Sequence record: MN850645.1
Length of the DNA: 64,000 nucleotides
Origin: Escherichia phage outra
Strand: one strand, 5' to 3'
Each line of letters opens with the position of its first letter. Position 1 is the first letter of the stretch. A program made the translations under genes and the position numbers. Below the pieces are notes generated by a model. The model was not told the DNA's origin. It saw nothing but the letters and a program-made list of their open reading frames with translations, and searched no databases. Below are positions 17,197 through 31,424 of the stretch, one piece after another.

Positions 17197-18369
17197 ATGA
17201 CAGCACCAAAATCATGGGAACAATATAAAGAAGAATTAACACCCCTTGCTAAAAATCGCAATATTCAAATCCTGGGTTATGTTGGTGAATGGAAAGGGAA
17301 CAAGACTAAACTTAAGCTATCTTGCCCTAAACATGGAGAGTGGAACACCACGAACATTAATGATTTTAAGAAGGGACGTGGTTGTCCTATCTGTTCTGGT
17401 AAGAAGCCGTTAACATGGGAAACAGAATTGCCGATCTTGGAAGAGATAGCACAGAAGAGGGGGTATCAGGTGTTAGGGTACGTGGGAGAATGGAAAGGGA
17501 ATAAAACAAAACTTGATTTGTTGTGTCATTGTGGTAATAAATGGGATACTACAAGTATTAACAATTTTAAACGTGGTAGCGGTTGTCCACAATGTAAGAG
17601 GGAGAGACAAACAATGTCCGACGATCAACATATTGCAGATTTCTTTTCTACAGGGGAATTTAAGGAAGGCACTATCTTCACCAATACAGGGAAACGTAAC
17701 AAGCGTGATGCAGTATGGATGGTTGAGTGTCCTGTTTGCTCCCATGATGAATATGTTCAAGCAGGTGTTTGTGATGGTAAATTTTACTCTGCAGGACATA
17801 ACCTTAAACAAGGGTATATTCCGTGTCGTTGTGGGAACTATCAGTATACAGAAGACCAGATCACCTATAGGGTAAAAAAGGAAGTAGAAGGGAAAGGGTA
17901 TGTCTGGGTAGATTGGATTACCAAACCCTCTTCTATAGGTAAGTTTAAATATCTTTGTCTTGTGCATGGTGAGCAGATAGGGAGTGCTCGTAATTTATTA
18001 AGCCTCGGTCAAGGTTGTCCACAGTGTGCTGGTCATAATCAACAGCAATTATATATTAATATTGTTAAAGATAATGATATTATAGTTGCTCTTAAGTTTG
18101 GTATATCTAAAGATAGCGATAGACGATTAAACGGTCAAAATAGCCGTAATCTGTTTTTTATGGGGCGTATTTGTTTATATGATTTTAGCACAGTGAAACA
18201 ATGTAGGGCTGCTGAAAGAGCTATAAAGAAAAAATTAAAAACTGGTATTTTAACGGCAAGAGAGTTGAAAGATGGTTATACAGAAACAGTAAGTGTTTCT
18301 GATTTGGAAAATCTTCAAAAAATTATTACACAATATGGTGGCAAATTAGTATACAGTAAGGAGATGTAA
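17197..18369 (+). CDS. Zn-ribbon-repeat protein with C-terminal T5orf172/GIY-YIG-like domain
   Basis: three repeats of about 40 aa each ending in CxxC (GCPICSG, GCPQCKR, GCPQCAG); C-terminal LYINIV...ALKFGISKDSDRRL resembles T5orf172/MUG113 motif; AAGAGGAG SD. Confidence 0.5.
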   Translation: MTAPKSWEQYKEELTPLAKNRNIQILGYVGEWKGNKTKLKLSCPKHGEWNTTNINDFKKGRGCPICSGKKPLTWETELPILEEIAQKRGYQVLGYVGEWKGNKTKLDLLCHCGNKWDTTSINNFKRGSGCPQCKRERQTMSDDQHIADFFSTGEFKEGTIFTNTGKRNKRDAVWMVECPVCSHDEYVQAGVCDGKFYSAGHNLKQGYIPCRCGNYQYTEDQITYRVKKEVEGKGYVWVDWITKPSSIGKFKYLCLVHGEQIGSARNLLSLGQGCPQCAGHNQQQLYINIVKDNDIIVALKFGISKDSDRRLNGQNSRNLFFMGRICLYDFSTVKQCRAAERAIKKKLKTGILTARELKDGYTETVSVSDLENLQKIITQYGGKLVYSKEM

Positions 18370-18921
18370 ATGCGGATTACTGATAAGTATGTGTTCTTCT
18401 TCTCGGCAAAAGATGAATTTAGCAACTGGTATCTATCATCTTTTATTGAACCTTTAGCTCCCAAGTATAATAATTCTATTACAAGTTCTGTTGAATTTAC
18501 TTGTGTGGAACAATATATGATGTGGAGAAAAGCATGTTTGTTTTATGATTACAACATTGCATCTTCTATTTTAACCGGAGATCTAAGATATACAGGAGAA
18601 AAAGAACAGGCATATTATAAGCGACTAGGTAGATTAGTTAAAGATTACGATGAAGCTACTTGGACTTCTTTACGGGAGAAGATTGTCAAGCGTGGTTTGT
18701 ATCTTAAATACACACAAAATGAAGATCTCAAAAATAAACTTATCGCTTACGCAGATAAGGAGTTCGTAGAGGCAAGCCCTTATGATTCTATTTATGGTAT
18801 CAAAATGGGAATGTGGGATCGTGATGTGGAAAATAAGGACTGTTGGAAAGGACAAAATCTTTTAGGAAAATGGCATACAGACCTTGCTGTTTATCTAAAA
18901 GCACAATCTGATATTTCCTGA
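18370..18921 (+). CDS. NADAR-family (YbiA-like, DUF1768) protein
   Basis: FFFS..DEFSNW, EQYMMWRKA and FVEASPYDSIYGIKMG blocks match the YbiA/NADAR pattern; ATG overlaps upstream stop (TAAATG). Confidence 0.65.
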   Translation: MRITDKYVFFFSAKDEFSNWYLSSFIEPLAPKYNNSITSSVEFTCVEQYMMWRKACLFYDYNIASSILTGDLRYTGEKEQAYYKRLGRLVKDYDEATWTSLREKIVKRGLYLKYTQNEDLKNKLIAYADKEFVEASPYDSIYGIKMGMWDRDVENKDCWKGQNLLGKWHTDLAVYLKAQSDIS

Positions 18922-19136
18922 TATTTTGAAAATTTTTATTTTTATAAAAAGGGGTGTGGGTTTCATGTACGGAAATCCACCCTCTGAATAATATATCCAG
19001 AGTAAATATTATTCTGTACTCTGTTAATAAAGTATTTAATTTGTTTGTTTGACTATGGTATCTGATCTTTAAAAGGCATACTATCTCTTAACTACTACTT
19101 ATAACAGAACAGTAAAATCATTTTTATAAAAAGGAC

Positions 19137-19340
19137 AAAATTATTTAAAGTTTTTACAGATTTTTGGGTACAAATTTTGAAAATGAAAAGTTCAAGTTTG
19201 GTCAAAATTATTTAAAGTTTTTGTACGTATTTCTATCCAGATTTTGAAAATGAAAACTTCAATTTTTTAAAAATTCCCCAGTTTATTTAAAGTTTTTTTG
19301 CCTTTTTCCGTAGAAAAATCAAAAATGAAAAGTTCAATTT
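19137..19340. repeat. three tandem imperfect direct repeats of about 67 bp
   Basis: each unit contains TTATTTAAAGTTTTT ... GAAAATGAAAAGTTCAA. Confidence 0.7.
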
Positions 19341-19363: not shown

Positions 19364-19472
19364 GATAATCATTTTCATTTGTAAATGAGAATCATTATCA
19401 TTTAAGTATGTAAGTGATAATCATTCTCAGTAAGAGAATGAGAATCATTAGCAAATGAGAATTTTCTCATTT
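19364..19472. promoter_or_regulatory. cluster of Fur-box-like palindromes (AATGAGAATCATTATCA etc.)
   Basis: 19384-19400 matches 14/15 of the E. coli Fur consensus core ATGATAATCATTATC; further GATAATCATTCTC-type palindromes at 19416-19472. Confidence 0.5.
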
Positions 19473-19734: not shown

Positions 19735-20001
19735 TTATTTTTTGTTTTCTTGCCAGGATAGGACACCTAGCCAAAAATACATGTCGCCCCGCGCCCCTGG
19801 CGGGATCTTGCTTTCCCCGCCGCCACTGCAAGCCCATAGATAACCATTTGCGAACGTATCAAAATGATCTATTTCTTCCACCTTATGATCGCCCAGGTTG
19901 AGAACGGTTTCAACCTTTAAGCCCGTTGCGCTTGCTACCTGGTGCACCGTGCCGCCTTGCCAGCCTAATGAGTGCATGAGGTGTAAAGTAGTATTTGTCA
20001 T
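19735..20001 (-). CDS. hypothetical protein (88 aa), GC-rich, divergent from island
   Basis: ATG 20001 with AAGGG SD; possible minus-strand promoter TTGCTA-18-TATTAT at 20049-20078. Confidence 0.45.
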   Translation of the reverse strand: MTNTTLHLMHSLGWQGGTVHQVASATGLKVETVLNLGDHKVEEIDHFDTFANGYLWACSGGGESKIPPGARGDMYFWLGVLSWQENKK

Positions 20002-20112: not shown

Positions 20113-20141
20113 TTGACGTTCCTCACCTGGTAGCGTATTAT
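20113..20141 (+). promoter_or_regulatory. sigma70-like promoter
   Basis: -35 TTGACG 20113-18, 17-bp spacer, -10 TATTAT 20136-41. Confidence 0.55.
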
Positions 20142-20268
20142 TCATCTTGTCGAGGGGGGCGAGGCACAACGACAATAAACAAAAGGAGGGCGCAATGCAG
20201 GACGGGCAAAGGTGAGGATCTCCACAATCCACCGTCACAATAACATTACTTATAAAAGGTTGATAACG

Positions 20269-20364
20269 ATGATCAAGAAAGAAAACAGCTTGACGGTTGG
20301 AACGATTAACGCTATCATTCTAGCCGTTCCATTTTGGATTGTAGTAGCGGTTATTATCTTTTAA
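20269..20364 (+). CDS. hypothetical membrane peptide (31 aa)
   Basis: hand-translated; hydrophobic; weak SD. Confidence 0.25.
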   Translation: MIKKENSLTVGTINAIILAVPFWIVVAVIIF

Positions 20365-20372
20365 AAATATTC

Positions 20373-20428
20373 TTGACAACGTTTTTTAATCTGATAAGAT
20401 GTATCACATAGGGCGGCAATAGTGCCGC
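20373..20428 (+). promoter_or_regulatory. sigma70-like promoter plus type-B leader hairpin
   Basis: -35 TTGACA 20373-78, -10 TAAGAT 20395-400, hairpin GCGGCA-ATAG-TGCCGC 20413-28. Confidence 0.6.
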
Positions 20429-20452
20429 TCATAACAGAAGAGAGAAATAATC

Positions 20453-20725
20453 ATGGCATCATATAGCGCATCAATGATCGTAGCTGGCATCACTGGTAAA
20501 CCTATGCGCGGTGGCGGATCTTTCGCTAACATCAATATTGATGGGCGTTTATCCCTGGATGCAGCGATCACCGTGGCACGGGAAACATTTAAAAAAGAAT
20601 GTAATTTCAATAAACAAGATTATCTCGGCTTCGTTATTGAAAAAACCGCGCGCTTTGTGGATTATAAAAGCCCGAAAATGATCGACACTACACTAAAAGC
20701 GCAAGATGTAGCGTTTTTGCTTTAA
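20453..20725 (+). CDS. hypothetical protein (90 aa)
   Basis: ORF downstream of promoter/hairpin cassette; host-like codons. Confidence 0.55.
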   Translation: MASYSASMIVAGITGKPMRGGGSFANINIDGRLSLDAAITVARETFKKECNFNKQDYLGFVIEKTARFVDYKSPKMIDTTLKAQDVAFLL

Positions 20726-20728
20726 GGC

Positions 20729-20789
20729 TTGACACTTAAAAATAATTTTGTAATATATACCACATAAGGCGGGGAAATGGTTTCCCGCC
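20729..20789 (+). promoter_or_regulatory. sigma70-like promoter plus type-A leader hairpin
   Basis: -35 TTGACA 20729-34, -10 TAATAT 20751-56, hairpin GGCGGGGAAA-TGG-TTTCCCGCC 20768-89. Confidence 0.6.
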
Positions 20790-20811
20790 AAATCAAAGAA
20801 AGGGTAATGCA

Positions 20812-21174
20812 ATGAGCAAGCAAATCAATACTATCATGTTAAACCTGGTATCTTTCCGCGACGACGTGAAAAATCTTCCACGTGATGCAGTGGATGCACG
20901 GATCGAAAGCTATCGCTCACAGATCGCAACGCTACCGCTAAAACGTGATCAACATGCCGCTAATATGATGCTTAATGCTATGCTTAAAAAGATGATTCAA
21001 TGTGATCTTACCCTGGCTTATGAATATGCTGGCGATCTCTTTGTAACATATAGCAAGCCCGTACCAGGTATGAGCACAACCGAAGAATTGCATGCCTTAA
21101 ATCTGCGACAAGATGCATGGGATAACATGCGCCGTGTTATGGTATGGGTAGAAAGCGGTAAAATTTACGAATAA
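20812..21174 (+). CDS. hypothetical protein (120 aa)
   Basis: AAAGGG SD; downstream of cassette. Confidence 0.55.
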   Translation: MSKQINTIMLNLVSFRDDVKNLPRDAVDARIESYRSQIATLPLKRDQHAANMMLNAMLKKMIQCDLTLAYEYAGDLFVTYSKPVPGMSTTEELHALNLRQDAWDNMRRVMVWVESGKIYE

Positions 21175-21180
21175 AAACGG

Positions 21181-21234
21181 TTAACATTGCACTAAAACCT
21201 GATAAGCTATCTTAAAGCGGGAACTATTCCCGCT
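21181..21234 (+). promoter_or_regulatory. weak promoter-like sequence plus leader hairpin variant
   Basis: TTAACA-16-TAAGCT, hairpin AGCGGGAA-CTA-TTCCCGCT 21216-34. Confidence 0.35.
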
Positions 21235-21252
21235 TACATAGGATAAAACTTT

Positions 21253-21402
21253 ATGAAACAATATGTAATGAGTATTCACACCAAAAACGGCGCTACTGTT
21301 ACAACTCCGGCACGGTTTGCACTTGTAAACCGTTGCAAGAGACTAAAACGAGAGTTAAAAAATAACCGTGCAACGGGCTGCTTTAAACGCTGGGGAGGAT
21401 AA
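21253..21402 (+). CDS. hypothetical small protein (49 aa)
   Basis: hand-translated. Confidence 0.4.
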   Translation: MKQYVMSIHTKNGATVTTPARFALVNRCKRLKRELKNNRATGCFKRWGG

Positions 21403-21404
21403 TC

Positions 21405-21677
21405 TTGTTTTTTCTAAAAGTTTTTGATAATGTGATCGCTTTTGAACATGCTACAACGTTCAACCTGGCGAGATACGCTATCAGGTTTAAAGATAATGTT
21501 TATCCCCGTGCTGGTGGCGGTTACACTATCTTTAATCATCGTAACGCTCAATTAACAGATATAACGAATCCAGATCCTGGAGTGTATCGCATAGGCTGGC
21601 TACCGTCAAAAGACGCGGCAAGCATGTTTAAGGTGTGTAAACTACTAACAGAAGAGGCGAACGAACATGGGGCGTGA
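21405..21677 (+). CDS. hypothetical protein (90 aa), TTG start
   Basis: GGAGGA SD before TTG. Confidence 0.45.
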   Translation: MFFLKVFDNVIAFEHATTFNLARYAIRFKDNVYPRAGGGYTIFNHRNAQLTDITNPDPGVYRIGWLPSKDAASMFKVCKLLTEEANEHGA

Positions 21678-22221
21678 ATATGTGATCCAGTCATGGGTAA
21701 AGCATGACGCTAATGATCCGCGCATAATACCAGATGACATGATCGATCACATGGTAGGGTACAGCGGGGAGCAGATAGGGAATCGAGCGGCAAAGAGCAA
21801 CGGGCACACAAAGACGCGATCCGTTCGCCCTGGTTGGCTGGCAAATGGTAACGCTGACATTGCAAGCGCCGCAGATCCAAGCGATGACGCTAAAAATAAT
21901 CCCTTATATAGCATTGATCCGGCTTTTAAGGTGTTAGAAGAGTATCCCGCTAAATTAGCCGCACTAGATAAGGCATACGAAGAAAAGCGCATGGCATGGA
22001 CTGTATACAACACCGCTAAAATGGTGCTAGATGCAAAATTGATTAAAGCCCAGGAGAAGATCAATAAACTTGTTGCAGTAGCGCAAGAGGAAGACCAGGA
22101 CGACCAGGAGGAAGAGGAAGAAATCATGCCTACCCTGGAAGAGGAAGAGATCCAGCCATACATGCCGACGGAAGAGGAAAAAAGACAAGCCCTAAAAAAT
22201 TATGAAAATTGCATTGTGTAA
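21667..22221 (+). CDS. hypothetical protein with acidic C-terminal tail (184 aa)
   Basis: ORF; C-terminus QEEDQDDQEEEEE. Confidence 0.5.
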   Translation: MGREYVIQSWVKHDANDPRIIPDDMIDHMVGYSGEQIGNRAAKSNGHTKTRSVRPGWLANGNADIASAADPSDDAKNNPLYSIDPAFKVLEEYPAKLAALDKAYEEKRMAWTVYNTAKMVLDAKLIKAQEKINKLVAVAQEEDQDDQEEEEEIMPTLEEEEIQPYMPTEEEKRQALKNYENCIV

Positions 22222-22224
22222 GGC

Positions 22225-22280
22225 TTGACATATGCAAATAAGCCCCGTAATATGTACCACATAAAGCGGGGCAACGCCCC
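22225..22280 (+). promoter_or_regulatory. sigma70-like promoter plus short GC hairpin
   Basis: -35 TTGACA 22225-30, -10 TAATAT 22248-53, hairpin GGGGC-AAC-GCCCC 22268-80. Confidence 0.5.
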
Positions 22281-22302
22281 ATAAAGTGAAATAAAAAATC
22301 AC

Positions 22303-22330
22303 TTGACACCTGAAATCAGTAAGCTATAAT
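22303..22330 (+). promoter_or_regulatory. consensus sigma70 promoter
   Basis: -35 TTGACA 22303-08, 16-bp spacer, -10 TATAAT 22325-30. Confidence 0.65.
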
Positions 22331-22367
22331 GCTTATATAGATTGAAACATTACTAAGGAATAAAAGC

Positions 22368-22547
22368 ATGGCTATTATTGCAAAAACTGAGATCGTAGGT
22401 TTAGATTCTATCATCCTGGCATATGAGGAAGCTGTAGAAATGTATGTGGTTTCCTATGGTGATTATATCCGTGAATATAAATCTATTGATCTAGCTTTTG
22501 AATGCTATATTCGCCAGGTCAATAAAGCATATGATGATTATCGTTAA
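22368..22547 (+). CDS. hypothetical small protein (59 aa)
   Basis: hand-translated; AAGGA SD. Confidence 0.45.
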   Translation: MAIIAKTEIVGLDSIILAYEEAVEMYVVSYGDYIREYKSIDLAFECYIRQVNKAYDDYR

Positions 22548-22566
22548 AAGTTTTAGTCTTGTGCTA

Positions 22567-22595
22567 TTGACAACGAACGATAGTACAAGCATAAT
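22567..22595 (+). promoter_or_regulatory. sigma70-like promoter
   Basis: -35 TTGACA 22567-72, 17-bp spacer, -10 CATAAT 22590-95. Confidence 0.5.
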
Positions 22596-22642
22596 AACTT
22601 TTATCGGGAATACTCCTAACTAATCAAAAGAGATTAAAGACT

Positions 22643-23008
22643 ATGGCTAAAAATATCAATGTTTCTGCTTATGCTACCCTGGCTAACACTGCTAAAATTG
22701 AACTATCTAGCATTGAAGCGGTACATATTAGCGCCCGTCGCTGGTTTCAAAAGTCTTATGGTAACACTTATTTCTCTTTGATGGTTGACGTTGAGATCGG
22801 CGGTAAACTGATCGAAGTCGTTAACGTTCCGTTTCACTATGGCTACGGGGATCATTTTGATACCGTTGCCCTAGAAGAGTTTAGCAAGGTTATCAACCTG
22901 GAAGGTAAAGAGTTTTCAAATTATGCCTACCTTTCCCGTTTTTGCCGTGATAATGGGATCGCTGTATACAGTCATGCAAGCGATGTTAAACGTAAAAAAG
23001 ATTTATAA
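22643..23008 (+). CDS. hypothetical protein (121 aa)
   Basis: ORF downstream of promoter. Confidence 0.55.
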   Translation: MAKNINVSAYATLANTAKIELSSIEAVHISARRWFQKSYGNTYFSLMVDVEIGGKLIEVVNVPFHYGYGDHFDTVALEEFSKVINLEGKEFSNYAYLSRFCRDNGIAVYSHASDVKRKKDL

Positions 23009-23014
23009 AAAGCA

Positions 23015-23079
23015 TTGACAGCACGAATAAAAAGCGTAAAATGTTTCATATCAGGACGGGGAACGAAGTAACACCCCGT
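23015..23079 (+). promoter_or_regulatory. sigma70-like promoter plus hairpin (no ORF immediately downstream)
   Basis: -35 TTGACA 23015-20, -10 TAAAAT 23037-42, hairpin ACGGGG...CCCCGT 23056-79. Confidence 0.45.
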
Positions 23080-23128
23080 TAAGTAGCCCAGGAGTAAGGC
23101 ACACGAAAAACTCCCCTGATAAAATAGT

Positions 23129-23186
23129 TTGACAATGGTTTCTAATAACGTATAATACTTACATCGAGAGCGGGAACACTTCCCGC
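23129..23186 (+). promoter_or_regulatory. consensus sigma70 promoter plus leader hairpin
   Basis: -35 TTGACA 23129-34, -10 TATAAT 23151-56, hairpin GCGGGAA-CAC-TTCCCGC 23170-86. Confidence 0.65.
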
Positions 23187-23211
23187 CTCACTGAAAAAAG
23201 AGATTAACATC

Positions 23212-23451
23212 ATGGCTAAATCTAAAATGTTCTTAGGTCACAAAAACAAAACTCATTGGAATGTAAGCCTTTGGATCAACAACGATGAAGGTTTTTATAA
23301 TCTTGCGCGTGAATTTATCGCAGCTAACACCAATAAGAATGACGCAGCGCGTGATATGATGTTATTTCTTGAAAGTATGGATCAAGATAAAACGCCAGAC
23401 GGTTACAAGTTCAGTAAAACCGCGATCCGTGCCGCTATGGTTGGAATGTAA
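23212..23451 (+). CDS. hypothetical protein (79 aa)
   Basis: ORF downstream of cassette. Confidence 0.55.
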   Translation: MAKSKMFLGHKNKTHWNVSLWINNDEGFYNLAREFIAANTNKNDAARDMMLFLESMDQDKTPDGYKFSKTAIRAAMVGM

Positions 23452-23546
23452 AGGAGACATAAAAATGAAACATCGTTCGACCTATCTCACAAAACGTTTT
23501 AGCTTAGATCATAAATTGGGCTATTACGGAAGAAATAGAAAATAAT

Positions 23547-23606
23547 TTGACAACGTTTTAAATTAGTGTAAGATATATCACATAGGGCGGGAAATGGTTT
23601 CCCGCC
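23547..23606 (+). promoter_or_regulatory. sigma70-like promoter plus type-A leader hairpin
   Basis: -35 TTGACA 23547-52, -10 TAAGAT 23569-74, hairpin GGCGGGAAA-TGG-TTTCCCGCC 23586-606. Confidence 0.65.
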
Positions 23607-23628
23607 AAATCAAAGAAAGGTTATCATT

Positions 23629-23856
23629 ATGGCTATCATTATTGTTCGCGTATCCGGTACGGTTGGAAGCTCCCAGGTAGTAGCAGTTATCACCGAGAAG
23701 AAAGGGGATGATCTTCACTCTTCCTTGAATAGCTGGGCGGTAGCTAACTTCGGGCAATGGTCGAGCGTTGAGTACATCGAATCCTACCAGGTGCCAACGA
23801 TTAGCCTAACCGATCTAAATGTTGATCGCTTGTTGTGCCTGGATGGATTAAACTAA
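23629..23856 (+). CDS. hypothetical protein (75 aa)
   Basis: ORF downstream of cassette. Confidence 0.55.
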   Translation: MAIIIVRVSGTVGSSQVVAVITEKKGDDLHSSLNSWAVANFGQWSSVEYIESYQVPTISLTDLNVDRLLCLDGLN

Positions 23857-23864
23857 AAATAATC

Positions 23865-23920
23865 TTGACAAGATAACTAAAATCAGTAAAATGTAATGCA
23901 TAGGGCGGCAATAGTGCCGC
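23865..23920 (+). promoter_or_regulatory. sigma70-like promoter plus type-B leader hairpin
   Basis: -35 TTGACA 23865-70, -10 TAAAAT 23887-92, hairpin GCGGCA-ATAG-TGCCGC 23905-20. Confidence 0.6.
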
Positions 23921-23943
23921 TCCTAGTGAGAGAGATTATCAAA

Positions 23944-24156
23944 ATGGCTAATATCCGCACACTGTTAAAAAATGCAAAACAAGTTTTATTTTCTGATCAC
24001 GATCATTTTAATAAAGATATTACAGGCGTGAAGAATATCAAAGAGGTAAAAAGTGTTATGGGTATCTATTGCAATATGAAGCGAGTAGGCACATTTGGTG
24101 ATAAAGTATTATATCAGGCAGGTGACTACAATTTTACTTTGACAATTATCAACTAA
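23944..24156 (+). CDS. hypothetical protein (70 aa)
   Basis: start moved to ATG 23944 (track start 23896 lies inside promoter/hairpin). Confidence 0.5.
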   Translation: MANIRTLLKNAKQVLFSDHDHFNKDITGVKNIKEVKSVMGIYCNMKRVGTFGDKVLYQAGDYNFTLTIIN

Positions 24157-24167
24157 GGGATCACAAA

Positions 24168-24326
24168 ATGAAAACTTGCCAATGTGGTAAAAAGTCTATC
24201 TCTGGTTTAAAACGTGGCGTTGCTCTTTGTCAATATCACTATAACGCTCAAACGTGGGGTAAGCAGTGGGCGGATCAGGTGGAAGAGGCAAAGAAAGAAA
24301 ATATAAAAGTAGTTGCAAAGAAATAA
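24168..24326 (+). CDS. small Zn-ribbon-like protein (52 aa)
   Basis: hand-translated; CQCG...CQYH motif. Confidence 0.4.
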   Translation: MKTCQCGKKSISGLKRGVALCQYHYNAQTWGKQWADQVEEAKKENIKVVAKK

Positions 24327-24373
24327 AAATAGAGTAAACTGTATTCATCAAGGCGGTGGAATAGCTCACCGCC
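24313..24373 (+). promoter_or_regulatory. promoter-like sequence plus leader hairpin variant
   Basis: TTGCAA-16-TAAACT, hairpin GGCGGTG...CACCGCC 24352-73. Confidence 0.4.
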
Positions 24374-24397
24374 TAACAAAGAGAAGAGGAAAACATC

Positions 24398-24568
24398 ATG
24401 ATCACTTTCGCTACCCGTGAAGCCGCTCGCAACGTTGCACGTAAAGTTAATGCCGCCAACCTGGGCGCTACGCTTAAAGCCCCGGTAAAAGATGAATCAG
24501 GTAAATGGATCTTTCCTGGTCTGCGTCACGCTGATAAGCTGGGAACATTAACGTTAAAAAATAAATAA
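24398..24568 (+). CDS. hypothetical small protein (56 aa)
   Basis: hand-translated; GAGGA SD. Confidence 0.45.
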   Translation: MITFATREAARNVARKVNAANLGATLKAPVKDESGKWIFPGLRHADKLGTLTLKNK

Positions 24569-24575
24569 TATCCGC

Positions 24576-24634
24576 TTGACAGTAGCATGGTTTATAAGTA
24601 AAGTAACAACAACGGCGGGAAATGGTTTCCCGCC
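24576..24634 (+). promoter_or_regulatory. sigma70-like promoter plus type-A leader hairpin
   Basis: -35 TTGACA 24576-81, -10 TAAAGT 24599-604, hairpin GGCGGGAAA-TGG-TTTCCCGCC 24614-34. Confidence 0.55.
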
Positions 24635-24654
24635 ATCAATAAAGAGATAAGATT

Positions 24655-25014
24655 ATGAAATCAGTAAAAGCAATCAAAACTTACATTGTATCGGCTATTT
24701 CTTTTGAAGGTACTACAACCGAAAAAGAAAAAATCACCGAACTGATGCGCCGTTTTAATTCTGAATACTGGTATCCCGATAATCAAAAACGTTACAATTA
24801 TAACGTGATCAAGGCGATAGCCTCATGGTTACAAGGTTTACCGTCAGACATTAACATTGCCTTTGATTATAACGAGATTGATCATTTATTAATTGAATGG
24901 AAGTACATAAAAGAAACAAGCAAAGAAACAACCGTTACCCGTGAGCGGGAAAATTATTGGTTATATATTGCAAGCATGATCGTAATCCTGGCAAAACAGC
25001 ATAACGTGGCGTAA
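24655..25014 (+). CDS. hypothetical protein (119 aa)
   Basis: ORF downstream of cassette. Confidence 0.55.
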   Translation: MKSVKAIKTYIVSAISFEGTTTEKEKITELMRRFNSEYWYPDNQKRYNYNVIKAIASWLQGLPSDINIAFDYNEIDHLLIEWKYIKETSKETTVTRERENYWLYIASMIVILAKQHNVA

Positions 25015-25029
25015 TTAAGAGGAAGAAAC

Positions 25030-25167
25030 ATGAACGCATCACAGCAGATCGAAAAATTCAACCGCAGCAAGGCGCGTAAAGATTGGAACGAAGAGATCAC
25101 CAAAAAAGGCGACAAGCGGAACAAAACAAAAAGAGATCGCAGCACAAAAAGATACTGGAACGAATAA
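25030..25167 (+). CDS. hypothetical small basic protein (45 aa)
   Basis: hand-translated; GAGGA SD; Lys/Arg-rich. Confidence 0.4.
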   Translation: MNASQQIEKFNRSKARKDWNEEITKKGDKRNKTKRDRSTKRYWNE

Positions 25168-25174
25168 CAAAAAA

Positions 25175-25196
25175 GGGCGCAATAAGCGCCCTTTTA
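25175..25196 (+). terminator. rho-independent terminator
   Basis: GGGCGC-AATAA-GCGCCC stem-loop followed by TTTT. Confidence 0.65.
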
Positions 25197-25286
25197 GCTT
25201 ATATAGGGGCTTGTTACCCATAGGCAATGGTAACGCCAGGGCAAGCCTATAAATCAACGTTAGACGGCTTTACAGGAGCTTTAAAA

Positions 25287-25469
25287 ATGAGATTAGAAGA
25301 AATAAGCAAGGCACTAGACCAGGAGCAAAGGTTATGCGCCCGATATCGTGATCAATATGGCTTCATAACTAGCGGCGTGATCCTGGGGATGGAAGGCAAT
25401 AAGATTTTTATTGACACGTTGAAAAACGTTGTATATAGTGACAATATAATCTCAATAAAACATATATGA
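25287..25469 (+). CDS. hypothetical small protein (60 aa)
   Basis: start moved to ATG 25287 with AGGAG SD. Confidence 0.4.
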   Translation: MRLEEISKALDQEQRLCARYRDQYGFITSGVILGMEGNKIFIDTLKNVVYSDNIISIKHI

Positions 25470-25477
25470 GGCAAGAA

Positions 25478-25879
25478 ATGAAAAACTTATTGATCGCTGG
25501 TTTAATCTCTTTTGGCATGGTTGGAACATCTAGCGCGGCGATATCCTCCACAGTAGCAGAATTAAGCGCCGTTGATGCAATGGAAAACGTCATGCTTATT
25601 AATAATGCGATCCCCGATGAAATCATGGAGGATTCACACATGATCGCTTATGGTGCTGTTACACAACTAACGGCAAAAATAGATAAATCTATTGTTAATG
25701 GCTTAAATGAAGATGTACCATGTGAAATTATTACCAGTGTGCTGACTACTCAAAATTTTACGCCGTGGTTAAAAAGTATTCAAAAAGTACACAGTACAGC
25801 CGCAGATCGTAGCAATGAAAAACTAGTGTCAGCACTTGCAACGTATACCCTAGCAAAATGCACTGAGATAAAAGATTGA
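25478..25879 (+). CDS. putative secreted/periplasmic protein
   Basis: MKNLLIAGLISFGMVGTSSA signal-peptide-like N-terminus; GAGG SD. Confidence 0.5.
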   Translation: MKNLLIAGLISFGMVGTSSAAISSTVAELSAVDAMENVMLINNAIPDEIMEDSHMIAYGAVTQLTAKIDKSIVNGLNEDVPCEIITSVLTTQNFTPWLKSIQKVHSTAADRSNEKLVSALATYTLAKCTEIKD

Positions 25880-25904
25880 CAACATAGAAAGCACGTTATA
25901 AGAT
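25876..25904 (+). promoter_or_regulatory. sigma70-like promoter
   Basis: -35 TTGACA 25876-81, 17-bp spacer, -10 TAAGAT 25899-904. Confidence 0.5.
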
Positions 25905-25926
25905 ACACACAACAAAGGAGAACTAC

Positions 25927-26229
25927 ATGAACGGCATAGCTAAAACGTTTTTTCTTTTTTCTGGTGTAAATGATCCATCAATAAAAGTCGATAGTGTAAA
26001 AGAAAAAAATACTATCACCGCTAAATTGTTTCAAGATGAAACAAATAACGTGCTAATCATTAATCTTAAAGAAGTAACGAAAGGTTATTATACTATTGCT
26101 TACCATGCGATCTATCATGCTGGTACTGGTGAGGAAGTGCAAACAAGCAACAACGAAAGCGCGGCGCTACCTGGTGATCTGGTGCTGGGCGTTATCAGTT
26201 TAATTGTCAATGATTTTTTTAAGGAGTAA
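25927..26229 (+). CDS. hypothetical protein (100 aa)
   Basis: AAAGGAG SD. Confidence 0.55.
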   Translation: MNGIAKTFFLFSGVNDPSIKVDSVKEKNTITAKLFQDETNNVLIINLKEVTKGYYTIAYHAIYHAGTGEEVQTSNNESAALPGDLVLGVISLIVNDFFKE

Positions 26230-26233
26230 AACC

Positions 26234-26329
26234 ATGCCCTATTTACATTTATTTTTCGGTATCTTATTAACAGGATCTTTTTTCTTCTGTATGCTTGTTT
26301 CTATTGTAAACCACGTTTTAAGACATTAA
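26234..26329 (+). CDS. hypothetical membrane peptide (31 aa)
   Basis: hand-translated; AAGGAG SD; hydrophobic. Confidence 0.35.
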   Translation: MPYLHLFFGILLTGSFFFCMLVSIVNHVLRH

Positions 26330-26338
26330 GGAAACAGC

Positions 26339-26458
26339 ATGAAAATTATTCCCGTACAATATAGCGTAATAAATCCAGCATATGAGGAAGGAAGGAAAAC
26401 AAGCATGGCTTTATGTTGTATTGCTACTATAGCCATGTTGTTATACATTGTGTTTTAA
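26339..26458 (+). CDS. hypothetical membrane peptide (39 aa)
   Basis: hand-translated; AAGGAA SD; hydrophobic C-terminus. Confidence 0.35.
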   Translation: MKIIPVQYSVINPAYEEGRKTSMALCCIATIAMLLYIVF

Positions 26459-26487
26459 TAGGTTTTATAGTTGTACGCTTTAAAGGC

Positions 26488-26516
26488 TTGACAATTTTTT
26501 GTTATGCTTTAAACTA
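26488..26516 (+). promoter_or_regulatory. promoter-like sequence (good -35, weak -10)
   Basis: -35 TTGACA 26488-93; -10 candidate weak. Confidence 0.3.
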
Positions 26517-26558
26517 TATCTTGAAAACGGCAAAGGCCGCAAACAAAAGGGTAAAATT

Positions 26559-26882
26559 ATGAAATCTGTGATCGGTGTTTATTTGGATAACTCTGATTTT
26601 TTCTATCATCGCGCGCGTTTACTTGATGCTATTGAAATGATAGAATCAGGCTTTAAAGAGTATCGCCTTGCACATGATGACCTGGAAGCATTACAGGGCA
26701 ATAGTGTTTTTACATTGCAAGCGAAAGCACTATGCAAAAGCCGGATCGAGATTGCAAGTAAAAAGATAGAGCGCGGCATGTCCTGGTTGCGCACCGCAGA
26801 AATCAACATGGGGCAATGGTACGGCGAAAACTTAGAAAATAAACATGCTTTTGTCAATGTAGAAAATATTGAAGATTATTGA
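26559..26882 (+). CDS. hypothetical protein (107 aa)
   Basis: start moved to ATG 26559. Confidence 0.5.
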   Translation: MKSVIGVYLDNSDFFYHRARLLDAIEMIESGFKEYRLAHDDLEALQGNSVFTLQAKALCKSRIEIASKKIERGMSWLRTAEINMGQWYGENLENKHAFVNVENIEDY

Positions 26883-26944
26883 TTGACAGCACACCGAACG
26901 GGGAGTATATTGTATCTCATAGAGCGGGGAAATGGTTTCCCCGC
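26883..26944 (+). promoter_or_regulatory. sigma70-like promoter plus type-A leader hairpin
   Basis: -35 TTGACA 26883-88, -10 TATATT 26906-11, hairpin GCGGGGAAA-TGG-TTTCCCCGC 26924-44. Confidence 0.6.
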
Positions 26945-26964
26945 CTTAAAAGAAGAGATAAGCT

Positions 26965-27249
26965 ATGAAGATCACAAAAGCACTTTCCAACTATGCAGCA
27001 CGTCGCGGCTTATGTTTAACCGTTGAAAACCTGGGGAAAGAAGATTTTTTGTGCTTTTGGGAGCTTGAGAATGATAATGAGTGGATCTTCTCTTATTCTA
27101 TCTGCGAAGATCAAAACGGTTGTTTATTAGCCTGGCGCGGTAATATCTATCTACCGGAAGAAATCAAAGAAGAATTACCAGGCACGATCATGACTGAGAA
27201 ACAGCTTAAGGAAGTGATCAATTTTGTAGGGCAAAACATTAAAAAATAA
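26965..27249 (+). CDS. hypothetical protein (94 aa)
   Basis: ORF downstream of cassette. Confidence 0.55.
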   Translation: MKITKALSNYAARRGLCLTVENLGKEDFLCFWELENDNEWIFSYSICEDQNGCLLAWRGNIYLPEEIKEELPGTIMTEKQLKEVINFVGQNIKK

Positions 27250-27250
27250 T

Positions 27251-27307
27251 TTGACACTAGGCAAACAACGTAGTAAAGTTTATCACATAGGGCGGCAATA
27301 GTGCCGC
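27251..27307 (+). promoter_or_regulatory. sigma70-like promoter plus type-B leader hairpin
   Basis: -35 TTGACA 27251-56, -10 TAAAGT 27274-79, hairpin GCGGCA-ATAG-TGCCGC 27292-307; leader nearly identical to 20401-20452. Confidence 0.6.
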
Positions 27308-27330
27308 TCATAACAGAAGAGAAACAAATC

Positions 27331-27501
27331 ATGATCCCAACTATGTTTTATGTATCGCGCAAAGGTCACAATATTTTTTGGTCTGAAGATTTAAATGAAG
27401 CCATGACGTTTGCCCGTGATCGTGTCGCTATCGGTGGCGTTAACATTACCGTAACCGATGAAAATGGCATTGAATACTATAACGGCGACGATGAAGAGTA
27501 A
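27331..27501 (+). CDS. hypothetical small protein (56 aa)
   Basis: start moved to ATG 27331 (track start inside hairpin). Confidence 0.5.
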   Translation: MIPTMFYVSRKGHNIFWSEDLNEAMTFARDRVAIGGVNITVTDENGIEYYNGDDEE

Positions 27502-27508
27502 TTAATGA

Positions 27509-27529
27509 GGCGGGGGAATATTCCCCGCC
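27509..27529 (+). promoter_or_regulatory. intercistronic leader-type hairpin
   Basis: GGCGGGGGAA-TA-TTCCCCGCC between two ORFs without a recognisable promoter. Confidence 0.45.
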
Positions 27530-27548
27530 GTCAATAAAGAGGTAAATC

Positions 27549-27818
27549 ATGAAAATATCATTGGACGTTGCAATCAAGGCCATCGAATCCGGTTACACCC
27601 TGGTAAAAGATGATAAGGCTAAAATAGTGCATCATGTTAACAAGGAAACAGGCGAAAGCATGATCACATATAAAGCCGCCTACTTTCTCCAATCAGTAGC
27701 AGATCCGCGCGTACAACGCCAGGTTACGGCGGCTATTGCTAAAAAAGTATGTGCTTTACAGGGTACAAGTTTTAACGAGATCGCCCCGTGTTTTGACTGG
27801 TCGAGCTTGAAAAAATAG
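27549..27818 (+). CDS. hypothetical protein (89 aa)
   Basis: GAGG SD. Confidence 0.55.
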   Translation: MKISLDVAIKAIESGYTLVKDDKAKIVHHVNKETGESMITYKAAYFLQSVADPRVQRQVTAAIAKKVCALQGTSFNEIAPCFDWSSLKK

Positions 27819-27819
27819 T

Positions 27820-27847
27820 TTGACAATATGCGGTTATCTGGTAAAGT
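27820..27847 (+). promoter_or_regulatory. sigma70-like promoter (degenerate hairpin follows)
   Basis: -35 TTGACA 27820-25, -10 TAAAGT 27842-47. Confidence 0.5.
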
Positions 27848-27899
27848 GTACGACATAGGGCGGGGCAATAAGGCAACGCCCACTAATGAGGGTAAAATC

Positions 27900-28004
27900 A
27901 TGTTAGAGAAAATTTTCACGGTTGTAGTAGTGGGCCTGGCGTTATCGGTTGGAGTGATTGCAACTATGGCTAACATGATCCTATCTTCCCACGGTATTGG
28001 ATAA
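27900..28004 (+). CDS. hypothetical membrane peptide (34 aa)
   Basis: hand-translated; GAGGG SD; hydrophobic. Confidence 0.35.
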   Translation: MLEKIFTVVVVGLALSVGVIATMANMILSSHGIG

Positions 28005-28619: not shown

Positions 28620-28678
28620 TTGACACCGATCCCCGATATGTTATTATTTACCACGTAGGCGGGAAATGGTTTCCCGCC
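28620..28678 (+). promoter_or_regulatory. sigma70-like promoter plus type-A leader hairpin
   Basis: -35 TTGACA 28620-25, -10 TATTAT 28642-47, hairpin GGCGGGAAA-TGG-TTTCCCGCC 28658-78. Confidence 0.65.
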
Positions 28679-28702
28679 AGGTAATCAAAAAAGGTAAATA
28701 CT

Positions 28703-29092
28703 ATGCGCAACCTGGTTTCTGTTTCTAACGTTGAAAAATTTCAATCCTTGCAGGGTATCGTTAACAACGTAGCGCCTTTTCTAGTCAATGGCTTGATTGC
28801 AAAGATGAAAAATAAACATCATGCAGCATGGTCTGCTTACTGCTTTGATAATGATGAAAAAGCGGCTGAAATGATGTTAAATATGCTGTTAGATAGTGTA
28901 GAATCATCTTTACCGGAAAACATCGCAGAAGAGATCACCTATCGTTATAATATGGCGATCACCTATCAGGAGGTTGCGCAATTCAATATGATGGACGATG
29001 ACGAACAACAGGATCAGGAAATGTTTTGGGAATATGCAGATCGTCAATCGGCTTTTGATGAAAAGTTAGCGATGTATTATAACGAATATTAA
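28703..29092 (+). CDS. hypothetical acidic protein (129 aa)
   Basis: AAAGG SD; downstream of cassette. Confidence 0.55.
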   Translation: MRNLVSVSNVEKFQSLQGIVNNVAPFLVNGLIAKMKNKHHAAWSAYCFDNDEKAAEMMLNMLLDSVESSLPENIAEEITYRYNMAITYQEVAQFNMMDDDEQQDQEMFWEYADRQSAFDEKLAMYYNEY

Positions 29093-29108
29093 TACACGGT
29101 AAAAGAAA

Positions 29109-29133
29109 GGGGCGCACTAAGCGCCCTTTTTTG
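29109..29133 (+). terminator. rho-independent terminator
   Basis: GGGGCGC-ACTA-AGCGCCC stem-loop followed by TTTTTTG. Confidence 0.7.
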
Positions 29134-29477
29134 TATTCTTTTTCACGATGGAAGTAACACGTAAAGAATAAACGTAAGAGGTGGCGTAAAACAGCCTAAA
29201 ACCGATTATAACCGCTTAAACAAGGTAGTAATGACTAATCACCTTGCCAGGATGAAAAAGCTGTTATAAAGCTATCTAGAGCGTTTAAAGCACATAGGAA
29301 ATAATTTGCTTTTTATCTTGCCTTTTATCCTGCTTTTGATTATTATTATGGAACGGGCGGCACCTGGGGACAGGGGAAGATAATCACCGGAAGATCCCGC
29401 TATATATTAATAGCTAATACCTATCAAACAACAAAACATCAAAGGAATAAACTATCAAATCTTTACAATCCTACCTA

Positions 29478-29537
29478 TTGACACAGGATCACCCTTATAC
29501 TAATATGTATCCCGTAGGGCGGGAAATGGTTTCCCGC
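29478..29537 (+). promoter_or_regulatory. sigma70-like promoter plus type-A leader hairpin
   Basis: -35 TTGACA 29478-83, 17-bp spacer, -10 TAATAT 29501-06, hairpin GCGGGAAA-TGG-TTTCCCGC 29519-37. Confidence 0.65.
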
Positions 29538-29556
29538 TTGATATAGGAATCATACC

Positions 29557-29790
29557 ATGATCGAACAAATTAAAAGCACTACACCAAATGTTAACGGCAA
29601 TGTTTCACACTTTATCGGTGATAATGAAAGGGGCACACCATACGCCGCCGTAACCGTGCAACCTAACGGGGATTATTGGTTTACCGTGTACGGATCATAC
29701 TCTTTCGGACGCCCGGCACATGATAAGATCTTGCAAGCGGTTAAACCTGCGGGGAAGAATATCACAGTAGAAAAATTCTATGAAAAATAA
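29557..29790 (+). CDS. hypothetical protein (77 aa)
   Basis: ORF downstream of cassette. Confidence 0.55.
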   Translation: MIEQIKSTTPNVNGNVSHFIGDNERGTPYAAVTVQPNGDYWFTVYGSYSFGRPAHDKILQAVKPAGKNITVEKFYEK

Positions 29791-30263: not shown

Positions 30264-30292
30264 AAGGGCGCTTATTGCGCCCTTTCTTTTTA
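30264..30292 (+). terminator. rho-independent terminator (end of island)
   Basis: AGGGCGC-TTATT-GCGCCCT stem-loop followed by TTCTTTTT. Confidence 0.7.
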
Positions 30293-30496: not shown

Positions 30497-30570
30497 AATG
30501 ATAATCATTCTTATTTATAGCTGATTATTTATGCAATAAACTGCATAATGCAATAATGATAATCATTCTT
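30497..30570. promoter_or_regulatory. two Fur-box-like sites (AAATGATAATCATTCTTA; AATAATGATAATCATTCTT)
   Basis: GATAATCATT core shared with Fur consensus. Confidence 0.45.
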
Positions 30571-31424
30571 AACTTATGACCATCTAACCTATAAAATAAT
30601 AAGCTATCTAACTAAATTAAAACTAATTATCTCACCTTTATTTATAACTTACTGTTACTATCTCATTGATAACCTTATATTAAACAACAATAACTAATAT
30701 AAATCATTACTAAGCTAAATATAATCTATCTAACCTTTAAAACTATAACTATAATCTATCGAATTGTTGCACAAAGTAACTATTAAATTGTTAGTAACAT
30801 TGCTAAATAATTAATATCCTATCTATTTATGATCTAATCTTTACCTTCCTATTTATTACCTAAATAACCATTTCATATAGTAATTATTTCATACAATAAC
30901 TATAACAAGAAACATAATTCGCAAGCGTATCATTAGCAGCCTATGCCGGACACATAGGCGGCTAATAATAACGCAACTACACACCCCACATAATAACCAT
31001 CACCGATAGTTATTATTTGTGCTTATGTAGCTTGCAACAATTGCAAGCGCAACAATATACTAAGGTATATTGTATCCCTTACATTGTTGCGGTGCGTTAT
31101 TATTAGCTAATGTTTAGAACATTGGCTATAATATAAGCTGCATATAATAAGCTATTCAATAATAAACATCGTGAATAATGACATTGATGATCATAATGCG
31201 CCACCCTCCAGGGGGCGCTATGTGAACACAAAGAAATCTTTCTTATCAAGAAAATATTATCACTATTGCGCAAAATTATTTACATCTGAATAGATGATTT
31301 TTCATACTATTATTGTTATTTGTTGAGCATAGTTATAGCCTATTTGTTGAGCCTACTTTCTTAAAAGCGCAATAAATCAGAATTATCTTGATTTTTAGTG
31401 CGTTTTATAGTATAGAAAATATGC

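Follow-up and report, generated by a model that had tools for sequence, protein, structure and literature searches.

A family of promoter, 5' hairpin and ribosome-site cassettes that very likely recombine in the early region of Escherichia phage outra

The early-gene array and its twin leaders

The window analysed here is a stretch of 64,000 nucleotides (nt) of Escherichia phage outra (MN850645.1), and an array of early ORFan genes occupies ~20.1-30.3 kb of it on the + strand. Within this array, two nearly identical leaders stand in front of two genes that are unrelated to each other. A sequence-only reading had pointed out this pair together with a second, similar one, and had proposed a modular shuffling of expression cassettes independent of the coding sequence. 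Here we find that the twin leaders very likely belong to a family of ~16 promoter, 5' hairpin and ribosome-site cassettes that recombine. The 8 kb around the twin leaders are 94-97% identical to the Escherichia phages ESCO8, Nernie, Paula and many other Justusliebigvirus genomes (Stephanstirmvirinae, ~147 kb), and the nucleotide matches of this region reach into Phapecoctavirus; the window phage is accordingly Justusliebigvirus-like, with ~97% identity to the three named phages. In phage phi92, the counterpart of the array is gp225-gp248, a run of small hypothetical genes on a single strand near the right genome end. Ten proteins sampled from the array fell into 10 different PHROGs, all of unknown function, and among the same 10 proteins Pfam gave a match for the last one alone (Gp30.8-like).

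The near-identity of the twin leaders held on closer inspection. Positions 20402-20443 equal 27281-27322 exactly over 42 nt, and the full leaders agree in 48 of 52 columns up to the ATG, with a single gap of 1 nt; the second interval given earlier, 27283-27333, was off by ~3 nt and took in the ATG. Chance origin is excluded for an exact repeat of 42 nt within 64 kb. Both promoters carry the -35 hexamer TTGACA, with unrelated spacers and with TAAGAT and TAAAGT, respectively, as -10 hexamers; the identity of the twins ends upstream inside the spacer and downstream a few bases (<10 nt) before the ATG. In the second pair, 20767-20806 and 23584-23623 are 93% identical over 40 nt and share GCCAAATCAAAGAAAGG at 20787-20803 and 23604-23620. 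The sequence-only reading had regarded homology of the downstream proteins as the sign of a simple gene duplication. We looked for such homology and found no similarity in either pair; for the twin leaders, the 90-amino-acid (aa) protein MASYSAS... and the 56-aa protein MIPTMF... gave no BLASTP alignment at E <= 100 and are placed in different PHROGs. The downstream genes are thus unrelated in both pairs, as had been claimed. Three points were absent from that reading, namely a sigma70-type promoter directly before each leader, a third copy of the leader, of the type that we call A, at 23887-23935, and the size of the family.

Cassette layout and members

The family was found by three converging approaches: repeat finding, a promoter scan and a hairpin scan. 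The window holds 13 complete cassettes, all on the + strand and of constant geometry, besides promoter-only and hairpin-only relatives (Table 1). Specifically, a complete cassette consists of an AT-rich upstream (UP) element, a promoter of the form TTGACA-16/17-TAnnnT, a gap, the hairpin, an A-rich spacer with the Shine-Dalgarno (SD) sequence, and the ATG. The promoters match 10-12 of 12 consensus positions and have AAAAATAAT-type tracts upstream. The gap from the -10 to the hairpin measures 9-12 nt (6 in one cassette) and usually reads GTAyCACATAG; the hairpin has a G+C stem of 8-10 bp, interrupted in cassette D, and a loop of 3-6 nt; and from the hairpin to the ATG there are 17-24 nt of A-rich sequence with a purine-rich SD. 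The genes driven by the cassettes are small, unrelated ORFans, one or a few per cassette.

The association of promoter and hairpin is far beyond background. Between 19 and 31.5 kb there are 20 strong promoter sites on the + strand versus 2 on the - strand, and 11 of the 20 are followed by a fold of <= -12 kcal/mol within the first 42 transcribed nt, a value that 2.4% of the background windows across the 64 kb reach (binomial p ~2e-13). Eight related phages carry 9-17 cassettes apiece, and the architecture is also present in phAPEC8, phi92 and the Certrevirus phages CR3 and PcCB7V, in which a CACATAGGGCGG... hairpin lies behind some of the early promoters. A scan of IMG/VR with a 22-nt promoter word matched 2 contigs, too few for a population survey.

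Table 1 Cassettes and related features of the window, and hairpin alleles of the MIPTMF leader. Positions are those of the window; stems and loops are written as arm/loop/arm or arm-loop-arm.
Feature	Position	Strand	Details
Cassette A1	20373..20455	+	-35 20373-20378, -10 20395-20400, A-rich spacer with SD, ATG 20453 (90-aa ORFan)
Cassette A1 hairpin	20411-20430	+	GGGCGGCA/ATAG/TGCCGCTC
Cassette A2	23865..23946	+	A hairpin 23903-23922, ATG 23944 (70-aa ORFan)
Cassette A3, twin of A1	27251..27333	+	-35 27251-27256, -10 27274-27279, hairpin 27290-27309 (allele polymorphic among phages), ATG 27331 (56-aa ORFan)
Cassette with B-like hairpin	20729..20814	+	hairpin 20768-20789, ATG 20812 (120 aa); GCCAAATCAAAGAAAGG in common with B1
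Cassette B1	23547..23631	+	hairpin 23586-23606 (GGCGGGAAA/TGG/TTTCCCGCC), ATG 23629 (75 aa)
Cassette B2	24576..24657	+	hairpin 24614-24634, ATG 24655 (119 aa)
Cassette B3	28620..28705	+	hairpin 28658-28678, ATG 28703 (129 aa)
Cassette B4	29478..29559	+	hairpin 29517-29539 with two G.U pairs, ATG 29557 (77 aa)
Cassette F	26883..26967	+	hairpin 26924-26944 (GCGGGGAAA/TGG/TTTCCCCGC), ATG 26965 (94 aa)
Cassette E	21181..21255	+	hairpin 21215-21235 (AAGCGGGAA/CTA/TTCCCGCTT), ATG 21253
Cassette C	23129..23214	+	hairpin 23166-23189, ATG 23212 (79 aa)
Cassette G	24313..24400	+	weaker -35 TTGCAA, hairpin 24351-24374 (AGGCGGTGG/AATAGC/TCACCGCCT), ATG 24398
Cassette D	27820..27902	+	hairpin 27858-27881, ATG 27900
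Promoter with short hairpin	22225..22280	+	hairpin 22268-22280; then a second promoter without hairpin 22303-22330, ATG 22368
Orphan promoter with hairpin	23015..23080	+	hairpin 23055-23080; no open reading frame (ORF) before the next promoter; could yield a ~90-nt non-coding transcript
Promoter-less family hairpin	27509..27551	+	hairpin 27509-27529 right after a stop codon, then SD, ATG 27549
First array promoter	20113..20200	+	TTGACG-17-TATTAT
Bidirectional intrinsic terminator, for contrast	25171..25195	.	A tract, stem, T tract; others at 29104-29132 and 30264-30284
MIPTMF leader, allele A			GGGCGGCA-ATAG-TGCCGCTC; window, ESCO8, muut, one IMG/VR contig
MIPTMF leader, allele B			GGGCGGGAAA-TGG-TTTCCCGCTC; Paula, EC.P2, PD06, NHEP1, A145
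MIPTMF leader, allele B'			AGGCGGGAAG-TGG-TTTCCCGCT; WPEC2
MIPTMF leader, allele I			GAGCGGCGGA-ATGG-TCCACCGCTC; phAPEC8, dw-ec; variants in ECO340P2, ABPW7
MIPTMF leader, allele I with apical 12 nt inverted			GAGCGGTGGA-CCAT-TCCGCCGCTC; PD114

Fold of the hairpin and its conservation

The A hairpin, GGGCGGCA-AUAG-UGCCGCUC, folds with -14.4 kcal/mol (z = -4.3 and -4.7 in the twin leaders), and across the cassettes the stems of 8-10 bp reach -12 to -17 kcal/mol. In the folded leaders the hairpin is isolated, and the SD and the ATG are unpaired. We built a covariance model from twelve hairpins with 9-bp stems and searched the window with filters off. The matches were confined to 20.4-29.6 kb, and every one of them scored higher on the + than on the - strand. 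A scan of 18.5-32 kb against Rfam gave a sole match at E <= 1, the terminator at 25155-25200, with 25 bits versus a gathering score of 50.

To compare hairpins between phages, we aligned those of the window, of eight Stephanstirmvirinae loci and of two Certrevirus loci (11 sources). With MAFFT and RNAalifold, 27 hairpins that differ in length yielded a consensus of 4 pairs in poor register, and we used the covariance-model alignment instead; being fitted to the model, the latter is biased towards the structure. Among the 53 distinct hairpins aligned, 97.5% of the cells are paired, and sliding the register by 1-3 columns as a control lowered the pairing to 43-75%. Both sides of the stem have changed at 5 of the 9 pairs, with 68 double-change cells versus 20.4 in column shuffles (0 of 500 shuffles reached 68). 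The stems themselves are plainly unlike, for example GGGCGGCA/TGCCGCTC, GGCGGGAAA/TTTCCCGCC, AAGCGGGAA/TTCCCGCTT, AGGCGGTGG/CCACCGCCT and GAGCGGCGGA/TCCACCGCTC, among others. The structure of the hairpin is conserved and its sequence is not.

As to the strand on which this structure matters, sense-strand rows contain 17 G.U pairs versus 3 A.C mismatches, a suggestive excess in the direction expected for selection on sense RNA. We had also regarded the constant 5' position of the G-rich arm as evidence for the strand; this was dropped, since the property is unchanged under reverse complementation, so that strand information comes only from the G.U/A.C asymmetry and the loop sequences.

Hairpin alleles of an orthologous leader

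Among 15 phages, the orthologous leader of the MIPTMF gene is almost constant in two segments, one between the -10 and the outer stem and the other between the outer stem and the ATG. The inner stem and the loop are hypervariable and occur as the alleles listed in Table 1. A phage collection contained 17 records matching the A version at >= 95%, as against 33 for the B version, and most Phapecoctavirus records are equidistant from the two. The MASYSAS leader is of type A in every genome examined, including the ATAAC after the stem. The window and Paula agree throughout the flanks of the MIPTMF leader but differ at ~10 of the 25 positions that span the hairpin. These sequences are most simply read as a short-patch conversion by which, in the lineage of the window phage, ESCO8 and muut, the MIPTMF leader acquired the A hairpin. 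The conversion patch would measure at least 20 nt, with shared TATCACATAGGGCGG as its left and shared AACAGAAGAGA as its right boundary, and the 42-nt identity would have arisen because the A hairpin replaced an older hairpin on flanks that were already alike. The pair at 20790 and 23607 displays the same pattern, the post-stem sequence differing between the window (AAATCAAAGAAAGG), Paula (AGGCCATCAAAGAAAGG) and SD2 (AAAACAAAGAAAGG).

One could instead regard the twin leaders as the remnant of a duplicated gene with its leader, whose coding parts have diverged past recognition. The near-identity of the leaders would suit such an origin, but we consider it extremely improbable given that the proteins have no similarity and belong to different PHROG families, that the 42-nt identity ends within 10 nt of the ATG, and that the promoter spacers differ. 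In addition, Paula, EC.P2 and PD06 have a different hairpin on the same orthologous gene with the same flanks, so the twin identity is recent and limited to the hairpin patch. The shuffling seen by the sequence-only reading thus remains for the twins in a modified form: their near-identity is explained best by a short gene-conversion patch that swapped the hairpin of an existing leader, and less well by a transfer of the whole cassette.

Another kind of change is seen in PD114 (locus ~190-215; cf. phAPEC8 locus 2150-2175), where the apical 12 nt of allele I are reverse-complemented, CGGAATGGTCCA having become TGGACCATTCCG. Such a flip is typical of template switching at a hairpin, and by it a C.A mismatch becomes U.G.

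Recombination between cassettes

The array of the window was aligned with those of Paula, ESCO8, EC.P2, PD06, muut, SD2, phAPEC8 and phi92. The outcome predicted for such a comparison was obtained: the same leader or hairpin precedes different genes in the relatives. Across genomes, the genes behind the A hairpin (<= 3 mismatches) encode eight unrelated protein families, and those behind the B hairpin encode eight as well. Against the eight relatives we counted 31 distinct indel or replacement breakpoints, 21 of which are inside cassettes, which span 19.7% of the region (p ~9e-9); three further breakpoints are located 1-4 nt outside a cassette interval. Both observations support modular shuffling, with the unit being promoter, 5' hairpin and ribosome-binding site rather than the leader alone.

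Individual junctions can be followed to the base. In muut, a deletion 23908->24333 removes two genes and fuses cassette 24313 to the promoter of cassette 23865, with the junction within the -10 (AGTAAA) and the promoter geometry kept. In SD2, the promoter of the MIPTMF cassette is followed by a B hairpin and then by the leader and coding sequence of another ORF, of 34 aa, a layout that implies a crossover inside the shared B hairpin. EC.P2 and SD2 have 20158-20410 deleted, and the promoter at 20113 is joined to hairpin A at GGGCG. Relatives have an extra cassette (hairpin A with a 64-aa ORF) at the promoter of window position 27820, where it is flanked by a 17-nt repeat of the -35 region (27810-27826). 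ESCO8 has another insertion, flanked by CTATTGAC repeats at 29472-29482, and is without 23045-23158, a clean promoter-to-promoter indel of 114 nt that removes the orphan hairpin. Phage nepoznato has a different gene behind the promoter, A hairpin and SD region of a MIPTMF-type leader. The cassettes share enough sequence to serve as substrates of homologous or microhomology recombination, and deletion, insertion and replacement junctions inside the -35, the -10 or the hairpin give functional-looking chimeric cassettes.

There are also signs of such exchange beyond one subfamily. In the Vequintavirus NHEP1, which belongs to another subfamily and has a different gene order, the MIPTMF gene (94% identical) is behind a B hairpin and a promoter 92% identical to the cassette at window position 23547, and it follows a homologue of the gene at 29557. 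NHEP1 locus 1-383 is a mosaic of a gene end like 29671-29786 (77%), a promoter with hairpin like 23538-23614 (92%) and a hairpin with gene like 27281-27510 (94%). This mosaic indicates an exchange of cassettes between phage subfamilies. In the 159-kb record of WPEC2, an inverted copy of the leader and gene start of window 20389-20482 is found at locus 261-357, just past the start of the MIPTMF gene; it may reflect a genuine inversion between cassettes or else an error of assembly.

Proposed role of the hairpin

Taken together, recombining early-gene cassettes with a transcribed 5' hairpin as stabiliser or insulator are, in our judgement, the likely explanation overall and the best one that we found. 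For the hairpin by itself, a role as 5'-terminal mRNA stabiliser or insulator is the best available inference, and we regard it as about an even call. Host sigma70 RNA polymerase would use the cassette promoters, because these are near-consensus, because the related phage CB7 has sigma70-like early promoters and no RNA polymerase gene (PMC7344957), and because the promoters of rV5 are all E. coli-like (PMC3606486). With transcription predicted to start 6-8 nt after the -10, the hairpin would begin at +3 to +6 behind an unpaired 5' tail of 2-5 nt. A 5'-terminal stem-loop at this place would shield the early mRNAs from 5'-end-dependent decay (RppH, RNase E), and by tying up the first 25 nt it would prevent these from base-pairing to the ribosome site, whichever ORF follows. 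With the ribosome site insulated in this manner, any ORF placed behind the cassette would be expressed. A stable stem-loop close to the 5' end is a classical determinant of resistance to 5'-end-dependent decay.

Several points weigh against this explanation. The literature searched contained no transcription start, half-life or reporter data for this phage group, so the 5' position of the hairpin and its stabilising effect are predictions. Strong sigma70-like promoters elsewhere in the window have no hairpin, so the hairpin is no general need of phage mRNAs, and the family hairpin at 27509 has no promoter, so not every copy is 5'-terminal in a primary transcript. The G.U and A.C counts come from related sequences and reduce to ~8 versus 2 independent events, which keeps them only suggestive. 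Template-switch ('quasipalindrome') mutation can mimic compensatory change in small palindromes without selection, and the apical inversion in PD114 means that template-switch events occur at these hairpins. Finally, the enrichment of breakpoints is partly expected, as selection acts against indels in coding sequence and most of the intergenic DNA consists of cassettes.

The hairpins might instead be terminators or attenuators, either stopping read-through from upstream as proposed for the promoter-early stem-loop (PeSL) cassettes of T4-like phages or acting on the minus strand. In the GenBank record of Paula, several of them carry terminator labels for the opposite strand; the copy without a promoter, at 27509, is situated between two genes; and in the reporter test of a T4-like PeSL, the G+C stem-loop cut downstream lacZ about as much as rrnB T1 (PMC2839356). 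We nevertheless consider this quite unlikely. On the + strand, the G+C stem is at no copy directly followed by a U tract; A-rich sequence comes next, and the genuine terminators of the array with their A and T tracts (Table 1) look different. Since the hairpin is 3' of its own promoter, an efficient terminator would abort the cassette's own transcript. For the minus strand, 1 of ~16 copies (24638-24610) passes a terminator scan, minus-strand ORFs in 20.1-30.3 kb sit within or overlap + strand coding sequence, and no minus-strand coding sequence is annotated across the equivalent region in related records.

Three other readings give the hairpin a different role or none. If the inverted repeat acted in DNA, as the operator of a dimeric phage repressor or as part of a phage-specific promoter, its position over ~+4 to +25 would be the classical one for an operator, the PHIRE promoter marked in the phAPEC8 record (GTAGGGCGGCAATGGTGCCG) would be accounted for, and the motif CACATAGGGCGG bears a loose resemblance to T7-type CACTATAGGGAGA. 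Against this, stem sequence, stem length (7-10 bp) and loop (3-12 nt) vary while the pairing is kept, which is the opposite of a sequence-specific half-site; G.U outnumbers A.C on the sense strand; a near-consensus sigma70 promoter is already present 5' of every copy; and related phages have no RNA polymerase gene (PMC7344957), so that action in DNA appears hardly probable. A post-transcriptional regulon, in which an RNA-binding protein of phage or host recognises the hairpin and times translation or decay of early mRNAs, would agree with the conserved 5'-end position on many unrelated mRNAs, with the partly conserved outer stem (G/A-GCGG...CCGC-T/C) and with the biased loops (AAUGG, AAUAG). 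The variable inner stem and loop argue against a specific protein contact, however, and no Rfam family, no candidate binding protein and no CsrA-type GGA in the loops were found, which leaves a regulon very unlikely. We assign a comparably small likelihood to a functionless hairpin. The palindrome would then be a passenger that owes its spread to duplication and conversion of the cassettes and its perfect pairing to template-switch correction. Its presence in the cassette family only, other promoters of the window being without it, and the PD114 inversion would suit a passenger; but fold and exact placement persist across two phage subfamilies despite different stem sequences, at least four alleles of one leader all fold, and G.U is tolerated above A.C on the sense strand.

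Other candidates were examined and set aside. A T7-type promoter (CACATAGGG vs CACTATAGGG) is not needed with canonical sigma70 promoters present and related phages lacking an RNA polymerase gene. An RNase III site was rejected because stems of 8-10 bp are too short, a thermosensor or riboswitch because the SD and ATG are unpaired, and a CsrA site because of the loop sequences noted above. The put RNA of phage HK022 comprises two stem-loops of ~70 nt in total, and a put-like antitermination RNA was rejected on size, as the element here is a single 20-nt hairpin.

Public records have given the hairpins other names. In the phAPEC8 record they are labelled 'putative promoter determined with PHIRE' (locus coordinates 556-575, 937-956, 1787-1806 and 3202-3221), directly after host promoters predicted with MEME; the minus-strand terminator labels of Paula are at locus coordinates 3769-3793, 7092-7115, 9662-9685 and others. 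Both kinds of label are probably misreadings of the same hairpin. We found no description of the hairpins for Stephanstirmvirinae or Vequintavirinae in the literature searched.

Comparison with known systems

The closest system is that of the PeSL cassettes, described for the T4-like phages RB49/phi1, T4/PST and KVP40/nt-1 (PMC2839356, PMC4122927). PeSL cassettes are, as here, repeated units of AT-rich region, sigma70-like early promoter, G+C stem-loop, SD and ATG; they cluster in a hyperplastic region of small ORFans; and crossovers in the motif between close relatives let genes move with their own expression signals. The differences concern the stem-loop. The PeSL stem-loop is upstream of the -35, between the hexamers, over the -10 or just before the start. 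It is thus not part of the RNA made from its own cassette, and its interpretation, for which there is one reporter test, is that it terminates transcription arriving from upstream. The hairpin described here instead begins 9-12 nt past the -10, inside the predicted 5' untranslated region (UTR), with a fixed SD spacing and no T tract, and the lineage is that of Stephanstirmvirinae and Vequintavirinae. Hairpin-allele swapping in one orthologous leader occurs here and was not found in the PeSL text consulted (PMC2839356, PMC4122927). Excised mini-circles during infection are a further feature of PeSL. The cassettes of the array are therefore closest to PeSL, yet they are no PeSL members in the strict sense, because their stem-loops differ in position and lack a T tract.

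A second likeness concerns expression. Known 5'-terminal stabilisers include hp1 of the E. coli ompA 5' UTR and the hairpin of the phage T7 gene 10 leader, which is used in pET vectors. Common to these and to the cassettes is a stable hairpin a few nt from the 5' end (predicted in our case), followed by an unstructured A/U-rich segment with the SD. They have no sequence relationship, the role here is suggested by position alone, and the predicted 5' tail of 2-5 nt is at the edge of the length reported to protect.

The early promoters also belong to a class already known from Certrevirus, with the consensus AAAA(N3)TGTTGAC(N19)TATAAT (Buttimer et al. 2020, PMC7344957). Both have an UP element and cluster among short hypothetical early ORFs. 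The paper covers the promoter only: a text search for 'hairpin' and 'stem-loop' gave no match, and its promoter passages are silent on recombination.

Integron attC sites offer a third comparison, which Arbiol et al. already drew for PeSL (PMC2839356). Like integron cassettes, those of the array are small, mostly single-gene modules with foldable imperfect inverted repeats at their borders, shared by unrelated genes. Unlike integron cassettes, which are promoterless, they have promoters of their own; no integrase is present, and their junctions resemble homologous or microhomology crossovers and not site-specific ones. On this basis one might propose that the hairpin, besides being an RNA element, is the preferred crossover point of a recombinase-independent, integron-like gene-cassette system across Stephanstirmvirinae and Vequintavirinae, which we consider unlikely. 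In such a system, a cruciform or hairpin formed at the element would attract phage enzymes of structure-specific recombination or repair. Co-infecting phages would swap ORFan cassettes, perhaps in the form of excised circles, and the cassettes would always land behind a working promoter and before a working ribosome site. The NHEP1 mosaic, the hairpin-allele swaps and the apical inversion are compatible with this proposal without being proof of it.

Features around the array

Upstream, the array adjoins genes for an AAA ATPase, a CapR/T5orf172 protein (homing-endonuclease-like) and a NADAR-domain protein, the latter two at 17197-18921. NADAR proteins reverse DNA ADP-ribosylation of the DarT type, which makes the gene for the NADAR-domain protein a candidate for anti-defence. 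A lone 88-aa ORF at 19735-20001 (-), oriented away from the first early promoter, is a homologue of phi92 gp224 and gave no Pfam match. A gene for a 31-aa hydrophobic peptide at 20269-20364 (+) follows the promoter at 20113 and is deleted in EC.P2 and SD2.

Repeats of other kinds are found on both sides. The non-coding stretch before the array holds three tandem repeats of ~70 nt that are 72% identical (19120-19340), and three dispersed 37-nt repeats occur after the array at 31178-31652. Since the terminal repeat of phi92 is ~1.1 kb past the gp248 homologue, the stretch at 30.3-31.7 kb may hold the physical genome end. In the two long non-coding stretches on either side of the array we also noticed Fur-box-like sites (GATAATGATAATCATTATC, <=3 mismatches), with 5 matches versus 0.09 expected, among them 19381-19399, 19434-19452, 30552-30570 and 31423-31441, the last with just 2 mismatches. 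Fur or iron control of the early region of a virulent phage would be unusual.

Outside the array, terminator-like hairpins (AAAGCCCC...GGGGCTTT and AACCCCC...GGGGGTT) occur within 15-25 nt after two consensus promoters, at 46095-46030 (-) and 54009-53937 (-), and an SD and ATG come directly next. These cases are either spurious promoter matches or another kind of 5' hairpin.

Conclusions

The mode of phage genome evolution described here is already known; what is new is the lineage in which it occurs and the transcribed position of the structured element. The PeSL idea, that conserved regulatory cassettes are portable recombination handles for ORFan genes, extends past T4-like phages to the large group of therapeutic coliphages that resemble rV5, phi92 and phAPEC8. 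A transcribed hairpin of 20 nt could serve both expression, through mRNA protection and insulation, and genome plasticity, and an insulating hairpin, if true, suits a cassette that is repeatedly set before new genes. The cassettes are compact natural modules of promoter and 5' UTR, reusable for phage engineering, and they mark the sites at which early genes, candidates for host takeover and anti-defence, are swapped between phages.

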